A stretch of DNA of 63,553 nucleotides, filler included, from 11 parts of 11 records of this genome joined end to end with filler, not necessarily neighbours in it; one strand, 5' to 3'. Shown: positions 12,317 to 37,035, numbered from the whole stretch's first letter. A program made the numbers and translations. The notes: generated from the letters alone by a model not told the origin.

Positions 12317-12416
12317 NNNNNNNNNNNNNNNNNNNNNNNNNNNNNNNNNNNNNNNNNNNNTTAATTAATTAANNNNNNNNNNNNNNNNNNNNNNNNNNNN
12401 NNNNNNNNNNNNNNNN
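12317..12416. other. Artificial contig spacer (first of ten)
   Basis: 44 N + TTAATTAATTAA (stops in six frames) + 44 N. Identical spacers at 17833-17932, 23021-23120, 28742-28841, 32119-32218, 38985-39084, 42981-43080, 47754-47853, 50924-51023 and 59007-59106. Confidence 0.98.
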
Positions 12417-13144
12417 GGAGGACGAGGAGCTCAAGAGCATCCCGCACTATGTGCGGCACAACCGCTGCTTCGAGGGCACGCTCAAGCGCGGTGCGCCCGG
12501 CCAGTGTCGACACGCCCGACTGCTGGCAGGCGACGCGCCGCCCGACTGCAGGGTGGTCGCGCTCGATAAGACCGAGACGAGCCTGCGCGGACTGATGAAT
12601 CGCACAGGCAGCCGGGCACAGCGGTACCTGCTGAGCTGGTGTGGCAGGGCCTGTGGTGCTGCTCGGAGCGTCGCACACCTGACCCCCGTTCCGGCTGTCG
12701 CAGCCGCTGCTGCAGCAGCTGTACGCCCAGTACAAATCGGAGGTCCAGTTCCTGCTGGTGTATATCGCTGAAAGCCACGCCGTGGACGAGGTGCGGCCCT
12801 GTGCCTCAGTAGTCCCTCATGTGCGAGCAGTGGCCTGTCGGTGAGACCATAATTAAAAAGCAGCACACCAACACCCCGGAGCGAATCACGGTGCCCAGCC
12901 GGTGCCCCGACGCACGCTCAGCGTGTGCATGCAGGCCTGCGAGGAGTGCCTGGAAGACTTTGGGCTGCAGTGGCCGACGGTGGTTGACTCTGCTGACAAC
13001 GACTTTCACCAGACGTACGCCTGCTGGCCGATCAGGTTCTACTGCATCCTGGATGATGTGCTGGACGTGGTCGCTACCCCCAACGGCGATTCTGGCTACG
13101 ATCTGCGGGAGATAGAGCATTGGGTCGAGCGCGTCCTCCCGTGA
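12417..13144 (+). CDS. Iodothyronine deiodinase-like selenoprotein (5'-partial), Sec codon TGA at 12680-12682
   Basis: Removing introns 12491-12529, 12608-12647 (GC-AG), 12791-12830 and 12891-12934 gives ...GDAPPDCRVVALD...GPVVLLGASHT-U-PPFR...VQFLLVYIAESHAVDEW...KQHT...ER...VVDSADNDFHQTYACWPIRFY...GYDLREIEHWV*. This matches the deiodinase motifs SCTUPPF, YIEEAH and DxMxN..YxAxPERL. Confidence 0.92.
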
Positions 13145-13164
13145 AGCCGACTCAATGATGGGCA

Positions 13165-13254
13165 CCACACTGGATCGTGCGGGCATATGACTGCTTGTGA
13201 GTAATCCCGACTGGAGCTCACAAGCACGAGCCTCACCTGCACCGACCCGTGTGG
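13165..13254 (+). promoter_or_regulatory. Eukaryotic SECIS element (type II-like) in the deiodinase 3'UTR
   Basis: ATGA core 13187-13190. Perfect 10-bp helix TGCTTGTGAG (13192-13201) / CTCACAAGCA (13217-13226). Unpaired AA 13203-13204, apical ministem TCC/GGA, 3' GA 13228-13229. Lower helix GTGCGGG/CCTGCAC and outer CCACAC/GTGTGG. AATAAA follows at about 13256. Confidence 0.9.
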
Positions 13255-13328
13255 AAATAAATAAAATTAGAATCCAGCTTTGTAGATTGCCGTTGGGAGC
13301 CGTCAGCCCGAGCACTCGACGCTGACAC

Positions 13329-14181
13329 ATGGAGCATGTGGATTTCCATCGTGCCCAGGCCAGGCCTGCAGAGGTGCCCCGGTGCAGGCCCACCAGCAGG
13401 GAGCCACTGTCCAGGGGGTCGCCGTCGAAGTCGATGGCGGCCTGACCGCCCCGCCCCCGGCACCGCCGCTGGCCGAGCCGTGGCTAAGTCGGTGGGCCTT
13501 GAGTCTGCTCCTGAGTCTCTGGTGCAGCGCAAGCGGCCGATGCGGTCAACCTATTGAAGCCGGAAACTGGCATCCAGGAGACCACCCAGGCAGCCGGCCC
13601 TGCAGGTGCGGGCGAGCCCGCGCAGGTCTTTCGGCGGGTGCACGGGGCGATGATCGTTCTCTGGTCGGGGCTGGACCAAGCCCTCGAGCTGGTGCCCCGG
13701 CTGCCGGGCAGGTGGGAGCCCCGGGGGCAGCACAGCGGGCAGGGCGGCGAGTATGAGAGCAAGGCGGGCGAGATGAAGAAGGTGTTTGACCGACTAACTC
13801 AGGAGATGCGCAAGTGCGAGGTGGCAGCCCGCAGGCACGGCGCGACCGGGCGGAGCAGGCGCATGCCAAGGCGCTGGACCGCGCATCGGTTGCGTCGCCG
13901 ATGGCGGAGATTGTGAGCCTGGAACTGCAAAAGATGGAGAAATTCGGTCAGCTGGAGGTGCAGCCGTGCGATCGGTGGTTGCTGAATAGCAGCGCAGGAC
14001 AACTTGCAGGAGTGCGAGAGCGAAGAGGATCACAAAGGACTGAAGGCACGCCGCAGTAGCATTGGGCCTGACCGCTGGTCAGGAAATCAAAGCTCGGATA
14101 CAGCGGCAGCGCAACGAGCTTGAGCAAGTGATTCGGGAAGCGTTTGATGAAATGCAAGCAGGCTTGTGTGACGACTATTAG
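13329..14181 (+). CDS. Multi-exon helical/coiled-coil protein, possibly REX1-B-like
   Basis: Spliced model MEHVDFH...VFRRVHGAMIVLWSGLDQALE...EYESKAGEMKKVFDRLTQEMRKCE...EIVSLELQKMEK...VIREAFDEMQAGLCDDY*. Needs a GC-AG intron at 14046-14082. Family assignment is weak. Confidence 0.55.
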
Positions 14182-14389
14182 CCTTGTACGCAGATCATGA
14201 GTACTAGTTCATTTCGAAGGAGCGGTAACATATTTTGAATTTTTTATTCAATTTGTTTTTCTTTTGTTGCACACTTCATATTGGACCTACGGAGCGATTT
14301 GGCCTGATTAATTTAAAGTGACATGCGGTACGTAGTGCGGCACTTGGTTGCCGGTGCATCCGAATTCGAAGAGATTCCGAGCCTATTGC

Positions 14390-16372
<1,983 letters not shown>

Positions 16373-16698
16373 GCGTGAATCAATCGTGGTCCTCGCTCGA
16401 GGAAGGCAAGGTTCCGTTGGGTTCAAGACTTTCGCGCCGTGTTTGGGCTACAGGGTTCGCTTGCCTGCTAAACGCTGAAATCCGAGGTCGATGTTCAATT
16501 TCTGGACACATCGAGCTAAACCGATGTTACGACCGGGGGCGGCAACAGTGGGCCTAAGTATAAGGAAGCTCTTCTTCATAATATAAAAACAACACAATTA
16601 TAGATCGTCGAGAAAGTGTCGCTCGGTGCAATCGTTGCAAGCCTCACGTGCATCAGCGCTCTAGAGTCCTCAATCTCTCCTCAGCTGAGCGTTCGAGC

Positions 16699-17730
16699 TC
16701 ACTGCGGAGGAGCACCCGAGGGGGGACGCATCCCTGGAGGCGGCATGCCCGGCGGCGGCCGCATCCCCGGAGGCGGCATCCCTGCAGCACACAGCTCAGC
16801 AAGCCCGGTACCGAGCAGGTCTCACCCGGCGGCGGTGCCCCTCGCCCCATCATCCCTGGCGGAGCTCCCATCCCAGGGGGCGGCGGCCGCATCCCCGGTG
16901 GTGCCCCCATCCCCGGTGGCGCACCCATGCCTGCTGGCGGCGGCGGCCTCATCCCTGGAGGGGGTCCTGCTCCCCTACCGTAGCTCACTGGAGCGCCTGC
17001 CATCTACAAGCCAGCGGGTCAAGCCGCTCGACGGGGCGGGGCGGGCACCTGAGGTTGCATCATCCCGGGGTCGGGACCGCCAACCCCACGGACAGGACCT
17101 GCGCCTCAGAGCTCGCCAGGCCAGACTGACGGGCGCACCAGAGAGCCCGGCAGGGGCGCCAGACATCGGTGCCGTCGGCAGTCCACGGCCAGCTGCACGG
17201 CCCATCCCCGGACCGCCCTGCATCTTGCCCTCCTTCTGCACAGGCACCGGCCCGGTCACGGCCTGAGTGGGGGCAAGCCCGCGCACACCTCCTTGGGCGG
17301 CGGGCCTTCCACCGAGAGGGACACCACAGTCTCGCCGCGGACCAGCACCAGTCCGAGCATCCGCTTCTCCTCGCGCTCCTCGCCTGCCACACGCCCGCTG
17401 TTCAGAACCGAGCCACACCACCGCGACAGTCTGTCGACAGCTATCGACGGGCGCGCTTACCGCCCTTCTTCTTGTTGATGATCTTGCGGTACTCCTCGCA
17501 GTCACCGAGCACCAGGTTCATGTGGCGGTCGAAGGCCATAAACCGTCCGATCTGCTCGCGCTGAGTGAGCACCGGGGTCCGGGAGCCGGGCGGGGGCGGA
17601 CCAGGTGCCGGTGGTCCGAGATGGTGACGCGCATCCGGTAGTTGATGTGCTGGAGCATCTTGCTCTGCCGGTTGATACTCTGCCCCCCAAGCCACAGCTC
17701 AGCCTTGCTGCGCCTTGGCGAAGAGACCAT
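16699..17730 (-). CDS. SNRPB: Small nuclear ribonucleoprotein SmB/B'
   Basis: Seven introns. Spliced product [51 protein letters not shown]...[29 protein letters not shown], then GRAAGRG and PPPGMR repeats. Confidence 0.95.
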
Positions 17731-17932
17731 GGTGGCAAGCTCGGGAGGGCGAGTGCTCGGCGCGCTCGTGCGCACAGTAACGGAATTCTATCAAGACCTT
17801 GATATCAATGGTGGACCTAACCCTGCGGGGAGNNNNNNNNNNNNNNNNNNNNNNNNNNNNNNNNNNNNNNNNNNNNTTAATTAATTAANNNNNNNNNNNN
17901 NNNNNNNNNNNNNNNNNNNNNNNNNNNNNNNN

Positions 17933-32218: not shown

Positions 32219-35200
32219 CTTTGCAGGGGCTCGGTGTTGAGCGAATGGTAGGTGGCCGGCTTTCGACCAATTCTTCAACTCGGCTATGAATTCTTCCATG
32301 CTCCCTATAATTTACCAGGGGACACAACTAAGCTTCCCCCAGGCATTTTGAGGGACACAAATTGGCCTGCTACTCCCTGGCTCAGGTAGCCAATCGTGAT
32401 CTGCAAATCAGTCGGGCGGGTGCAGGATCTCTGTGCTGTCGTGCAATTTTACCAACAATGTCGGCAAACGGGCGGGAGCCCTTTATATATTGGGTGTCCA
32501 CATTGCTACAATCGAAGGAAACCGGTTTGTTGGCAACATGGGTAGTGAAGCCACTGGAGCGGTGATGGCTCTGCATGGCGCTGGGGTCGCACCTCCTTGG
32601 AGTATCTTCATCGACCCAGGGTCCGCGATTGGGTCGGTTTGGACTGATAAAGATTTGGACCCACCGCTCAAAGCACCACAGCCTGTGGACGGCTTCGGCC
32701 CAAGCATGGGCACCCTCAACACGTTCAAGGACAACATTCTTGAAGGAAACTCTGCTCTTTTGCCTTCGCCGGGAGGTCTGAGCTGGCCGAGCAATATTGA
32801 CTGGTCAGCAGGTGGGGCCGCCATGTTTTGGGAGGGTATGCTCTTCAAGCAGGCAACTGGCTTGCGCTAATCCAGCTGATTGATGCATGCAGAGCGGCAA
32901 CATCTGGCGCAATAACACTGGCCCTGGGAAAGGCGGTGCACTCCAGCACAAGGCCAGTTCAGAGTGGGCTGCGTGGGAGGCATTTGGGGAGTCGGGAGCG
33001 GGGCGGACGAAACTTTTGCTTGCAATGGTGTGGGCATGGCTCAACTCGTTGGCTCAAGAACATGTATACTCAAATCAACAACTTGGCATCCATGATATTT
33101 GGCATTATATCTCTCAAGACACCTTTGAGGACAACAGCCTTTCGGAGTCGCTTAGCCTCGGTGGCGCTGTCCAATTTGAAGGCAAGTGTAATGTGCCCGT
33201 CTTTGACACTCACTTTTTACGCAACGAGGCCTTAGTCGCCGGAGCAGCAGTTGTGTCTCAGAACAGCAAAATCAGCTTCACTAACTGTGTCTTTGAAGAG
33301 AATTTCACTGTCGAACCTGCCCTACTCAGCTCAGGAGGTGCCCTTTTTCTCCCACAGAATGCTTTTTTGAATATAACAGGCTGTCGATTCAGCAACAACA
33401 GAGCAGGGTTATGGGGCGGGGCTGTCCATATTTTGGCAAGTACAAACATATCCTTTGACTCATGTATATTCATTGAAAATAATGTCGCTGATTCAGGCGG
33501 GGGCATATACTCTATGACTCCCGATGGCAATCCCACCTATTTGAAGAAGTGTACCTTTCAACGCAACTACGTGAACGGAGTTGGAGGCCACGGAGGCGGT
33601 GGGGCAATTTCACTCAAAATAGGAGCAACAATCATCGATGATGGGAGCACATTTGAGGGCAACCACGTGAGCCAGGTCGGTGGAGGAGCGATTCAGATGA
33701 GTCAGGAATCCGAAGCAATCCTGACTGGCTCCACCTTCTTTAATAACTCAGCTACTGGCCTTCCTGGAGGCGGCGCAATCTACATGCAGACGGGGTCGCT
33801 GCTAAATGCCACATCGGTGAATTTCACTGCCAATAAAGCGCTCCAAATGCTCAGCACAACTGATGTGGACCCTGCGCTCTCGCAACTGTGCCCGCGCAAA
33901 TCTGGTGCCAACTTAGCAGAAGGTGGCTCCGGAGGACACATCTATGCAAAATGGCTGCAAGTCCCAGCAGCATGCGGACCAATATCGGAGACCCCGGCGA
34001 CAAGAATTAACCTGAACGACTGTGTGCTTGCGAGCTCATCGGCAATGGCGGGCGGGGTATACTGCGACAGCTGCGATCTGAAGATCGCCGGAGGCACCAT
34101 CAAGCAAAACGGTGACCACCGAAATAACGGCGACTATCCCGACAAGTACCCGGTGCCTGCCACCCAGTTTGGCGGTGGCGTGTATGTCAGTAAGGGCGAA
34201 AACACTAAATTTGCCATGCAAAACGTCCAGTGTGAGAACAACATAGCGGAAATCGGTGGCTGTGTGTACTATGAGAACCGCACTCTTGCCGAGAATCCTG
34301 GCGAGTCGATTGGCGACAACTGGAGCACCGACAGCACGTTCCCAGGCTGCAGCTTTACTGGTAACACAGCTACTGGGTACGGCCCAGACTTTGCATCTGA
34401 CATCAATGAGCTGGTGGTTCGCTACCTGGTCACCTTCCGAGCCAACCAGTCAGCCGAGCTACCGCCAGGTACTGTGGCACCTGCTGACCCTTTGGCAAGA
34501 CCAGTGTACATCGTGACCAGCCCGCAAGCAAGTAGTGAGGTTGTTTCGCTGCTCAACATACAGTCCAACAAGAGCTTCTCGGTTGACTACCGGCCTGGAG
34601 TGCCGTTCGATTTCTATCTCCAGCTCCGGGACTACTTCACTCAGATTGCCACTTCTGATTTGACTGGCAGCGGTGTAGTGTCACAGCTTATACCAGACTC
34701 ATCCCGGCAGCCTGGGCTTAAGGCTGCTGGCATGTCCAGTCAAGGATTGACCAACATCTCGAGGGTATACATTGGCGGAGCAGCCGAGTCTGTCTATGAC
34801 TGGAAAATTGAATCAACGTGGTTCAGGCTAAATGGGGGCAAAGTAACAAGAGAGGACTACATGATCAGTAATGTGTCCTCTACTGCGAAACAGTGCCAAG
34901 TGGGCGAGAAGACTACTTACGACGAGGACCCGGTGATGATACAGCGCGCTGCTGCACGGGGCGAGGATTATGTGGCCTTGCAAGTCATCAAGCGATGCAC
35001 ATGGTGCAAGGGCGGTAGCTACCTTGTCACCACCCCGGCCACTGAATGCAAAGAATGCCCCAAGAAAGGCGCTGACTGCGACCGGGGCGGCAACTTGATC
35101 CAGCCCAAAGGCAACTACTGGAGACACTATGATTCGGATTACATTTACAAATGCAAATACACAGGAGCATGTCTCGGGTCCCCAAACAGCGAGGCGGCTA

Positions 35201-37035
35201 TGGTGCCGACTCCATGTAAAGAGGGCATGATGGGGCCGATCTGTGCGGTGTGCGAGAAAAACTGGGCCAACACTGGAACCACCTGTGTGAGCTGTGACGG
35301 CTTCAAAATAACCAACCAGTTCATTCTCTTCTGCATCGCAATGGGCGTCACGCTGGTTGTGCTGGTGGGTTACATTGTCAGCAAGTGCTGTGGGGATGAG
35401 GACGAGAAGGCGATCAAGTCAACACAAGCGCTCAAAATTCTGATGAAGAAGAAGAAGACGGTAGCTCGCTTGGTGAACATCTTTGGACAGGCCAAGATCC
35501 TTGTGGCTTACTTTCAGGTCGTGATCTGCATCATGCTTGGCGGTGCGGTCGAATTCCCAGCCAATTTTGCCTATCTCATGGACTCATTCGCAATAGTGAA
35601 CATAGACGTTGTCGCTCTGATCAAATCCATGTGCCTCCTGGAAGGAGATTTCTACGCAGTGTGGCTATGGAACTTTTCCCTTCCAATCGTTGTGACCACA
35701 GTTTTGGTTGGGTATACTTGGGCTACTTGGCCCGAGGAGAATGACAAATCCGAGGAGGCGTTGTACCATACCGCCTTCTGCTGGAAAGCCGTACTCATGC
35801 TCCTGTTTTTCATGTACCCGAACTGCACGAGGGTGATGCTCTCCATGTTTAACTGTCAGGAGATCCAGTGGTCCGATTCAGAGACTAAGCATTTTCTCAA
35901 GGCTGACTACCAACTCGAGTGCTATACGGACGATTGGCTCTACTACAGCCCGTGGGCTGGACTGGGTGTACTTCTGTACCCGATAGGTGTCCCGCTCGTC
36001 TTCTACTTCACGATCTACCCTTATGCCAAGAACGATCCCGAACAGCCGCGTGCGCAGACTCTCAATAGCGCGGTGATCAAGGAAAAATTCGATTTTCTCT
36101 ACTGCCGTTTCAGACCCGAGTATTGGTGGTATGAGACGTCCGAGCTGGTGCGTAAAGCGCTGATTGGGGTGCTGATCCCGATGTTTGTGATGCCTGGCAC
36201 GGCCACAAACACACTTTTGTTGCTGACACTGAACTTATTCTATATCTGCTTGATTTTTGTTTGTTGGCCATTTCGAAACGAGGACGACAATGTGCTCATG
36301 AGTCTAAGTCTGATCGCAATCGAAGCCACGCTGTTTGGGGCACTGGTGATCAATGGGCAAATCGACATCACGGACGATTGGAGCGACGGAGTGAACACTG
36401 GACTGCTACTTGGGATTACTCTCACCTTGATCGTACTGTACATCGTGATACTGCTCCGGTTCCAGCTTCCGTTCATTTGCAACCACGGTTTTCCTTTGTG
36501 CTACCTGGACTGTATTAAGGAGTCAAGGCTCAACTGCTTCAAGAAAACTAAGAAGAGCAAACACACCCTCGGTGGCGACGTGTACCCCGATGGCCAGGTG
36601 GGCGTGGCAATGAATCCAATGAATGCAACCGATGTGGTCGAGATGGACGAGAGCGAGCTGGACCAGTTGATCGAGACATATTTCCATCGATACGACCTTG
36701 ACGAGTCGGGCACTATCAACAGCGTGGATGAGCTGCAGCAGCTGACCACAAACCTGGCGTTCAAGCTCAAGCTCAGTCTGACTGGACAAGAGATCGACGA
36801 GACGATCAACAGCGTGGGCCAGTTGGATGACTCGAATGGAATGGTGCTCAGCGAGTACACGACCTGGCTCAAGGAGAATTTCCTCGAGTTTGAGGATCCG
36901 AACGACCCACGGAACCCGGTGAGCGCTGCAATGATGGGCGCTGTCTCGATGAACCAAGATATGCAAATGCAGATGCAGATGATGGGACAGTATGAAGAAG
37001 AGGAATCTGACGAAGATTGGGGCGACGGCGATTGA
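32219..37035 (+). CDS. Large receptor-like membrane protein: beta-helix (GGAI/FxxN) ectodomain, Cys-rich region, about 8-9 TMs, C-terminal EF-hand; 5'-partial
   Basis: Repeated FxxN...GGA(I/L/V). CxxC-rich stalk (CKECPKKGADC, GPICAVC). KILVAYFQV, FLKADYQLEC, FLYCRFRPEYWWYETSELVRK, WPF motifs. DLDESGTINSVDE EF loop. Confidence 0.85.

Follow-up and report, generated by a model that had tools for sequence, protein, structure and literature searches.

The closest described counterparts of the gene reported here are the vertebrate deiodinases Dio1-3, which combine a thioredoxin fold carrying a deiodinase insertion with the selenocysteine (Sec) motif S-x-T-U-P-P-F, the signature Y-I-x-E-x-H...W, a second His (in QH), an Arg (Arg275 in Dio3) and a UGA codon served by a selenocysteine insertion sequence (SECIS) in the 3' untranslated region (3'UTR). 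Deiodinase-like proteins of bacteria, bearing the motif GSYT-C/U-PPF, reportedly form part of the Sargasso Sea selenoproteome. Among protists, didA of Dictyostelium discoideum is, by its published description, a Sec-containing deiodinase homologue with a type-2 SECIS and an unknown substrate (PMC2375036), which Lobanov et al. (2007) called “unexpected” (PMC2375036), while in algae DIO is listed as one of 42 selenoprotein families, with 80% of its members being Sec forms (Jiang et al., 2020, PMC7539508). Here, a further gene of this kind is described from a 63,553-base window, i.e., the whole stretch of DNA analysed, which has 60% G+C and, rather than being one locus, strings together 11 short contigs with ten linkers of 100 nt (N44-TTAATTAATTAA-N44). 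The gene lies at the very edge of the contig 12417-17832, on the plus strand, and is interrupted by an in-frame TGA at 12680-12682. It is very probably a nuclear, intron-containing and expressed gene of an uncultured marine protist, encoding a soluble thioredoxin-fold selenoenzyme of the family PF00837, whose UGA would be decoded via a type-2 SECIS about 40 nt past the stop codon, and whose most likely point of attack is an electrophilic atom in a small substrate.

Joining of the exons 12418-12490, 12530-12607, 12648-12790, 12831-12890 and 12935-13144 yields a 187-residue open frame with one internal TGA (12680-12682) and a terminal TGA at 13142-13144. The partial exon 1 (12417-12490, frame from 12418), covered by an RNA contig of run X4, encodes the last 20-odd residues of an N-terminal domain and a linker (EDEELKSIPHYVRHNRCFEG...). 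Exon 2 (12530-12607; GDAPPDCRVVALD...NRT) and exon 4 (12831-12890; WPVGETIIKKQHTNTPERIT), the latter carrying the second relay His, were placed by RNA contigs, translation and alignment. The active-site strand and helix (PVVLLGASHT-U-PPF ... VYIAESHAVDE) are encoded by exon 3 (12648-12790), and the coding part of exon 5 (12935-13144) supplies ACEEC...YACWPIRFY...VLP up to the stop.

This model was compared with RNA from the environment, namely contigs assembled from four metatranscriptome runs of marine poly(A)/cDNA (X1-X4, from three studies) and aligned to positions 12417-13400 at a likeness of at least 92%. Intron 1 (12491-12529, 39 nt, GT-AG, phase 1) is skipped in one X4 contig (joint 12489/12529, cut +1, side 58). 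Intron 2 (12608-12647, 40 nt, phase 1) is skipped in contigs of X1 and X2, with a loose end of X4 running into exon 3; out of five equivalent cuts, the GC-AG choice (+3 cut) is the sole near-canonical one. Intron 3 (12791-12830, 40 nt, GT-AG, phase 0) is joined across in X1 and X2, loose ends of X3 and X4 matching the start of exon 4, and intron 4 (12891-12934, 44 nt, GT-AG, phase 0) is joined across in X2 and X3. A single X2 contig of 330 nt connects exons 2 to 5, and the spliced forms set the transcribed strand as plus. The four introns of 39-44 nt, one of them GC-AG, that the first-pass annotation had proposed were thus all found removed in RNA. At the site of intron 4, two gene calls from close relatives (P0123 and P0124) lose homology immediately after ...NERIE; this run-on into non-homologous sequence suggests that the position of intron 4 may be shared with related genomes.

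The internal TGA is covered by four contigs, one from each run, with no differing letter. The transcript retains the UGA, because four contigs from four runs span it unchanged; removal of the TGA by splicing, the outcome which the first-pass annotation had set against its own proposal, is not what the RNA of the four runs contains. The region 13155-13400 has no RNA contig coverage, and the RNA is silent on the 3'UTR, the SECIS and the poly(A) site. One further X4 contig (record 8) matches just 32 nt after the Sec codon (12691-12722) and is unlike the window on both sides; its source is probably a paralogue or the homologue of another organism.

Membership in the deiodinase family was examined with Pfam T4_deiodinase (PF00837), the exons of the window gene being taken singly. 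Exon 3 alone scores 37.5 bits (E 2.1e-9, cut-off 27, profile positions 104-149), and exon 5 gives a colinear match of 19.4 bits (E 7e-4, positions 181-236 of 237). Among PDB sequences, exon 3 matches mouse Dio3 (4TR3, E 1.3e-6) and Dio2 (9H48, E 2e-6), with the UGA falling on the Sec-to-Cys position of both structures (SHT-U-PPF vs SCT-C-PPF in 4TR3 and SAT-C-PPF in 9H48), while exon 5 alone finds nothing there at E up to 10. When 1.84 billion representatives were scanned in full, exon 3 yielded 75 matches at E <= 0.001, the majority being bacterial deiodinase-like proteins; exon 3 also matches thioredoxins weakly. The spliced product aligns over nearly its full length with the homologues found in this way (P0019, 110.8 bits, residues 7-178; P0015, residues 14-186), exons 1, 2, 4 and 5 being colinear with them although not used in finding them. 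At the UGA column, the 77 aligned homologue stretches have Cys in 75 cases (one being the Sec of a related locus, L001, written as C) and Ser and Trp in one case each. A homologue search with exon 5 among longer proteins scored none of the four candidates. The continuous deiodinase frame of thioredoxin fold and the catalytic position of the TGA, both read earlier from the sequence by the first-pass annotation, are borne out by these alignments, and the homologues do place Cys at the codon in question.

The relative L001 was obtained from a scan of metagenome contigs with exon 5, which gave four loci (L001-L004); L004 (36% identity) was dropped, as it adjoins a bacterial UvrB-like open reading frame (ORF) and has no clean frame. 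L001 (1,087 nt) is intronless and mRNA-like, with one 304-codon frame, a TGA at codon 172 and a TGA stop. Its context around the internal TGA is identical to that of the window (GASHT-U-PPFRLSQP), and its protein shares 70.9% identity with the spliced product across 182 aligned residues, interrupted by one gap. Taken at full length, it scores 121.2 bits on PF00837 and matches 9H48 at E 1.7e-23 and 4TR3 at E 1.6e-20. In the codon alignment of the two genes TGA stands opposite TGA. The proportions of nonsynonymous (pN) and synonymous (pS) differences are 0.218 and 0.74 before the UGA (61 codons), and 0.232 and 0.77 after it (124 codons). The ratio pN/pS is about 0.30 on both sides, with synonymous sites saturated; therefore, the sequence behind the UGA is as constrained as the sequence ahead of it.

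A similar picture emerges from public protein collections. Searching 5.8 billion proteins with the L001 protein gave 24 matches. The first half alone is represented in the best 15 (170-212 residues; identities of 45-88%; none with a precomputed Pfam domain), and all 15 stop at the residue before the Sec codon (...ASHT in 13, ...ASHS in two); the remaining nine are bacterial-type Cys forms. When the second half was searched among shorter proteins, 25 matches were obtained, all belonging to PF00837 and most beginning at the first Met past the Sec position. Sixteen of these C-terminal halves are 63-79% identical to the window product (best P0109, 78% over 116 residues), and over the 61 residues before the Sec the window product is 78.7% identical to P0080 and P0081. 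The TGA at the split was read in the window, L001 and L002. Taken together, the gene calls point to conservation, in many relatives, of both the Sec codon and the half behind it, and the expectation that gene callers would truncate such a gene is realised in its closest kin.

These calls bear on one alternative, according to which the UGA is a plain stop, so that translation yields the N-terminal part alone and what follows is either untranslated or the decaying tail of a pseudogene. Public gene calls do end at this codon and the window hairpin is unscored by Rfam. Against this stand the equal constraint before and after the UGA, the conservation of the post-UGA part in 25 separate gene calls, the fact that this part comprises half of the thioredoxin fold along with the catalytic Glu, His, His and Arg, the retention of TGA despite saturated synonymous sites, and the SECIS hairpins present in both the window and L001. 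A plain stop is, on this balance, very improbable.

Reassignment of UGA is found in some protists, and the organism could in principle use UGA for a standard amino acid (Trp or Cys) in all its genes, in which case the product would not be a selenoprotein; one homologue call (P0073) has W at the UGA column. The gene ends present a picture which is not that of UGA REASSIGNMENT: the window gene and L001 both end in TGA where the Pfam profile ends (236 of 237), and in an Hsp33-like ORF of the window the stop, close to where its profile ends, is likewise TGA. UGA still works as a stop in the window gene and in L001. Considering these ends and the presence of a SECIS-type hairpin, a genome-wide reassignment deserves hardly any credence.

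Decoding of the UGA as Sec would require a SECIS, and a type-2 SECIS-like hairpin of 90 nt is present at 13165-13254 on the plus strand. Its minimum free energy is -48.8 kcal/mol (z -5.2), and none of 200 shuffles fold as well. Helix I (13165-13183/13236-13254) is interrupted and has 17 bp; the internal loop carries A-UGA-C on the 5' side (13187-13191) and C-GA-G on the 3' side (13227-13230); helix II (13192-13202/13216-13226) has 11 bp; an unpaired AA (13203-13204) follows 12 nt past the UGA of the hairpin core; and a mini-stem of 3 bp (13205-13207/13213-13215) completes the type-2 layout. Between the stop TGA (13142-13144) and the AUGA (13187-13190) there are 42 nt, and two overlapping AAUAAA motifs (13256-13265), read from the sequence as a possible poly(A) signal, come directly after the hairpin. 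A self-written SECIS-like pattern (not SECISearch3) has exactly one site on both strands of the 63.5-kb window, which is this hairpin, and three sites in 20 shuffled windows; therefore, a chance match within about 200 nt downstream of the stop has a likelihood of roughly one in several thousand.

The 3'UTR of L001 likewise holds an AUGA, a 10-bp helix, an AAA, a 5-bp mini-stem and a GA (3' core G-GA-G), and this hairpin matches Rfam SECIS_1 with 24.9 bits (E 0.0032) over the full model length, below the gathering score of 35. The helix II sequences of the window and L001 are unrelated, yet both are fully paired, as should be expected of a structural signal; a covariation statistic would need more than two sequences. 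The L002 3' region gave no SECIS by Rfam or by a relaxed pattern. A hand-read AUGA...GA candidate in L002 is without the unpaired AA and was not used, and the 3' regions of L002 and L003 are identical, so that no covariation can be drawn from them.

With respect to chemistry, the alignment retains the residues by which the vertebrate enzymes are recognised. The Ser and Thr flanking the Sec, the Tyr, Glu and His of Y-I-x-E-x-H and the Trp five residues later are all kept, as are the second relay His (in K-Q-H) and the Arg aligned with Dio3 Arg275; the Dio2 structure paper assigns these residues to the proton relay, to the His/Trp pair or to the substrate clamp (PMC11592359). The AlphaFold model of the L001 protein (predicted local distance difference test, pLDDT, 88.9; predicted template modelling score, pTM, 0.77) has as its best PDB matches 4TR3 (template modelling score, TM, 0.83; root-mean-square deviation 2.2 over 174 columns) and 9H48 (TM 0.82). 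Since the relay residues are kept and the structures match in this manner, a deiodinase-like mechanism is ranked first and a peroxiredoxin-like redox role second. The first helix would begin at the selenolate of ASHT-U-PPF, which has behind it, in the manner of the vertebrate enzymes, the relay of Ser/Thr/Tyr/Glu/His/His, a Trp and an Arg, and which would most likely attack the electrophilic atom of a small substrate. The first choice for this atom would be a halogen on an aromatic ring (reductive dehalogenation via a selenenyl halide), after which the enzyme would be re-reduced by thiols, perhaps by the conserved C-x-x-C of its own clade.

This C-x-x-C (ACEEC, ACKEC, ACQEC or ACNEC) is conserved in the close clade together with a Cys in Y[AS]CWPIRFY, and the two elements suggest candidate resolving thiols. 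In the window they correspond to CEEC at 12938-12949 and YACWPIRFY at 13013-13039, the Cys residues being kept by the close clade, to which 16 of 25 C-terminal halves belong, and not by the more distant one. The same residues are compatible with a different role, in which the gene and its Sec decoding are as above and the product is a peroxiredoxin-like thiol peroxidase or a thiol-disulfide/selenenylsulfide oxidoreductase, with the Sec as the peroxidatic and the C-x-x-C as the resolving residue. In the structural ranking of the L001 model, the two deiodinases are followed by ResA/TlpA-type thiol-disulfide oxidoreductases and 1-Cys peroxiredoxins, the weak thioredoxin matches of exon 3 point the same way, and thyroid hormones are, by the account available, not known in protists (PMC2375036). 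On the other hand, the relay residues specific to deiodinases are present in full, together with the Trp and the counterpart of Dio3 Arg275, and the model matches the deiodinase structures (E ~1e-14, TM 0.82-0.83) far better than any peroxiredoxin or ResA (E ~1e-7, TM up to 0.81 on much shorter targets). Such an oxidoreductase role is considered rather unlikely.

Certain observations weigh against the reading of the gene as a selenoenzyme of deiodinase-like chemistry. For the protist members no substrate is known for any, and the Dictyostelium didA null mutant is stated to retain the DIF dechlorinase activity, the data not being shown there (PMC3205185), so that didA is not the DIF dechlorinase, a point which also counts in favour of the oxidoreductase role. 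Next, the gene is incomplete: its 5' part is cut off at the contig joint, position 12417 being the first base after the 100-nt linker at 12317-12416, a point missed by the first-pass annotation. ARAGORN found no tRNA in the 63.5-kb window, which says nothing on the rest of the genome. Furthermore, three stretches of the window 3'UTR gave no SECIS family (SECIS_1) in Rfam at E up to 10; the matches AS-pc02 and WT1-AS_5 obtained there are at chance level and were rejected. Lastly, the 3' core C-GA-G departs on both flanks from K-GA-W, while UGAC on the 5' side fits UGAN (consensus UGAN/KGAW as quoted in the SECISearch3 paper, PMC3753652). The G after GA also occurs in L001, and the unusual 3' core may be a habit of the lineage. 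The 3'UTR hairpin can be defended as a type-2 SECIS that is complete in structure and has an unusual 3' core; of the earlier description of a textbook core about 43 nt after the stop and followed by AATAAA, the SECIS-type hairpin, the gap and the AAUAAA stand, and the word “textbook” is withdrawn owing to the C-GA-G core and the lack of an Rfam match.

From the vertebrate enzymes the gene product differs by an identity of about 28-32%, by His in place of Cys or Ala at position -2 to the Sec and in that no thyronine substrate is expected; moreover, L001 is without the N-terminal membrane anchor and has a soluble helical domain of about 125 residues instead. The missing anchor speaks against a vertebrate-type Dio and not against membership in PF00837. 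The bacterial deiodinase-like proteins share PF00837 and the same core motif; they are 22-33% identical to L001, have mostly Tyr at -2, often bear signal peptides or EF-hands, and use a bacterial-type SECIS where Sec is present. As far as the algal DIO family is described, no N-terminal domain or ASHT-U motif is mentioned (PMC7539508).

The helical domain itself is common to all 15 N-terminal halves, L001 and L002, where it is strongly conserved ahead of the deiodinase core. The window retains just its last 20-odd residues (...EDEELKSIPHYVRHNRC), and comprises the 3' four-fifths of the gene; by analogy with all close relatives, the missing 5' part should encode the conserved helical domain, of about 110-150 residues. 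A tblastn search with the domain of the relatives against the other contigs of the window gave no match. The domain has no Pfam match in L001 and none precomputed for the 15 halves. Folded alone, it reaches a pLDDT of 87; against 48,161 PDB representatives its best Z is 4.8, with none of at least 5, and against the ESM Atlas its best value is 0.77 (P_C10), below the level where chance matches are common, and no family was taken from these comparisons. Literature searches found no paper describing the domain, which has no name to search by, and none on deiodinase selenoproteins in MMETSP. The domain may be undescribed, and judged by alignment the clade is marked off by it in combination with the motif [GA]ASH[TS]-U. 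A distinct subfamily had been proposed earlier on the basis of the His at -2 and of YIAESH. The clade is real, with the helical domain and the [GA]ASH[TS]-U motif as its marks, but the His at -2 and the Ala and Ser of YIAESH sit at variable columns of the family, with Tyr predominating at -2 (58 of 77) and Arg at the position two residues ahead of Glu-x-His.

Two larger architectures containing the same pair of domains were observed among the relatives. In L002 (358-3192, plus strand), and as the same gene in L003, a 944-codon intronless frame comprises BTB, BACK, the helical N-domain and a Sec-deiodinase core (AASYT-U-PPW), which is, by its predicted domain order, a module of Cullin-3-adaptor type fused to a selenoenzyme. 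In the protein P0074 (791 aa), the N-domain and a deiodinase core of the Cys form come immediately after five ubiquitin repeats; this protein could be either the precursor of a ubiquitin fusion or the product of merged gene calling. A broader proposal, which is tentative and on balance doubtful, would join these elements into an undescribed and widespread selenoenzyme clade of marine protists, in which a confidently folded helical N-domain, unlike any known fold, is permanently fused with a Sec-deiodinase core that brings its own C-x-x-C. This N-domain would select a natural organohalogen or other electrophile, the two-domain module placed elsewhere behind BTB-BACK or polyubiquitin would tie the enzyme to ubiquitin-dependent regulation, and the clade would be invisible to annotation as public calls cut it at the Sec.

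As for the surroundings, a gene for a DDX3/Ded1-like DEAD-box helicase with an RGG-rich tail (14390-16447, minus strand) is convergent with the selenoprotein gene, and the approximately 1.1 kb separating their 3' ends is without a Pfam match. On the other contigs, the genes are of ordinary eukaryotic kinds (Urb2, Roc-COR, ankyrin, Josephin, WD40, Hsp33 and aminotransferase). A 1,383-codon open frame at 32884-37032 (plus strand) contains repeats of the right-handed beta-helix and Chlamydia-PMP types.

The gene is a sound, RNA-supported addition to the deiodinase-like selenoproteins already known from protists, whose existence in Dictyostelium (PMC2375036) and in algae (PMC7539508) is in the published accounts, as the first-pass annotation had noted for some protists. 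The knowledge of Sec decoding itself is unchanged by the finding. It adds a well-supported selenoprotein to an uncultured marine protist and provides direct RNA evidence that introns of 39-44 nt and a GC-AG intron are spliced in the source organism. Furthermore, a whole clade of deiodinase-like selenoproteins is documented as split at the Sec in public protein collections. For work on the biochemical role of the non-animal deiodinase homologues, the clade gives a soluble, conserved and recombinant-friendly member.

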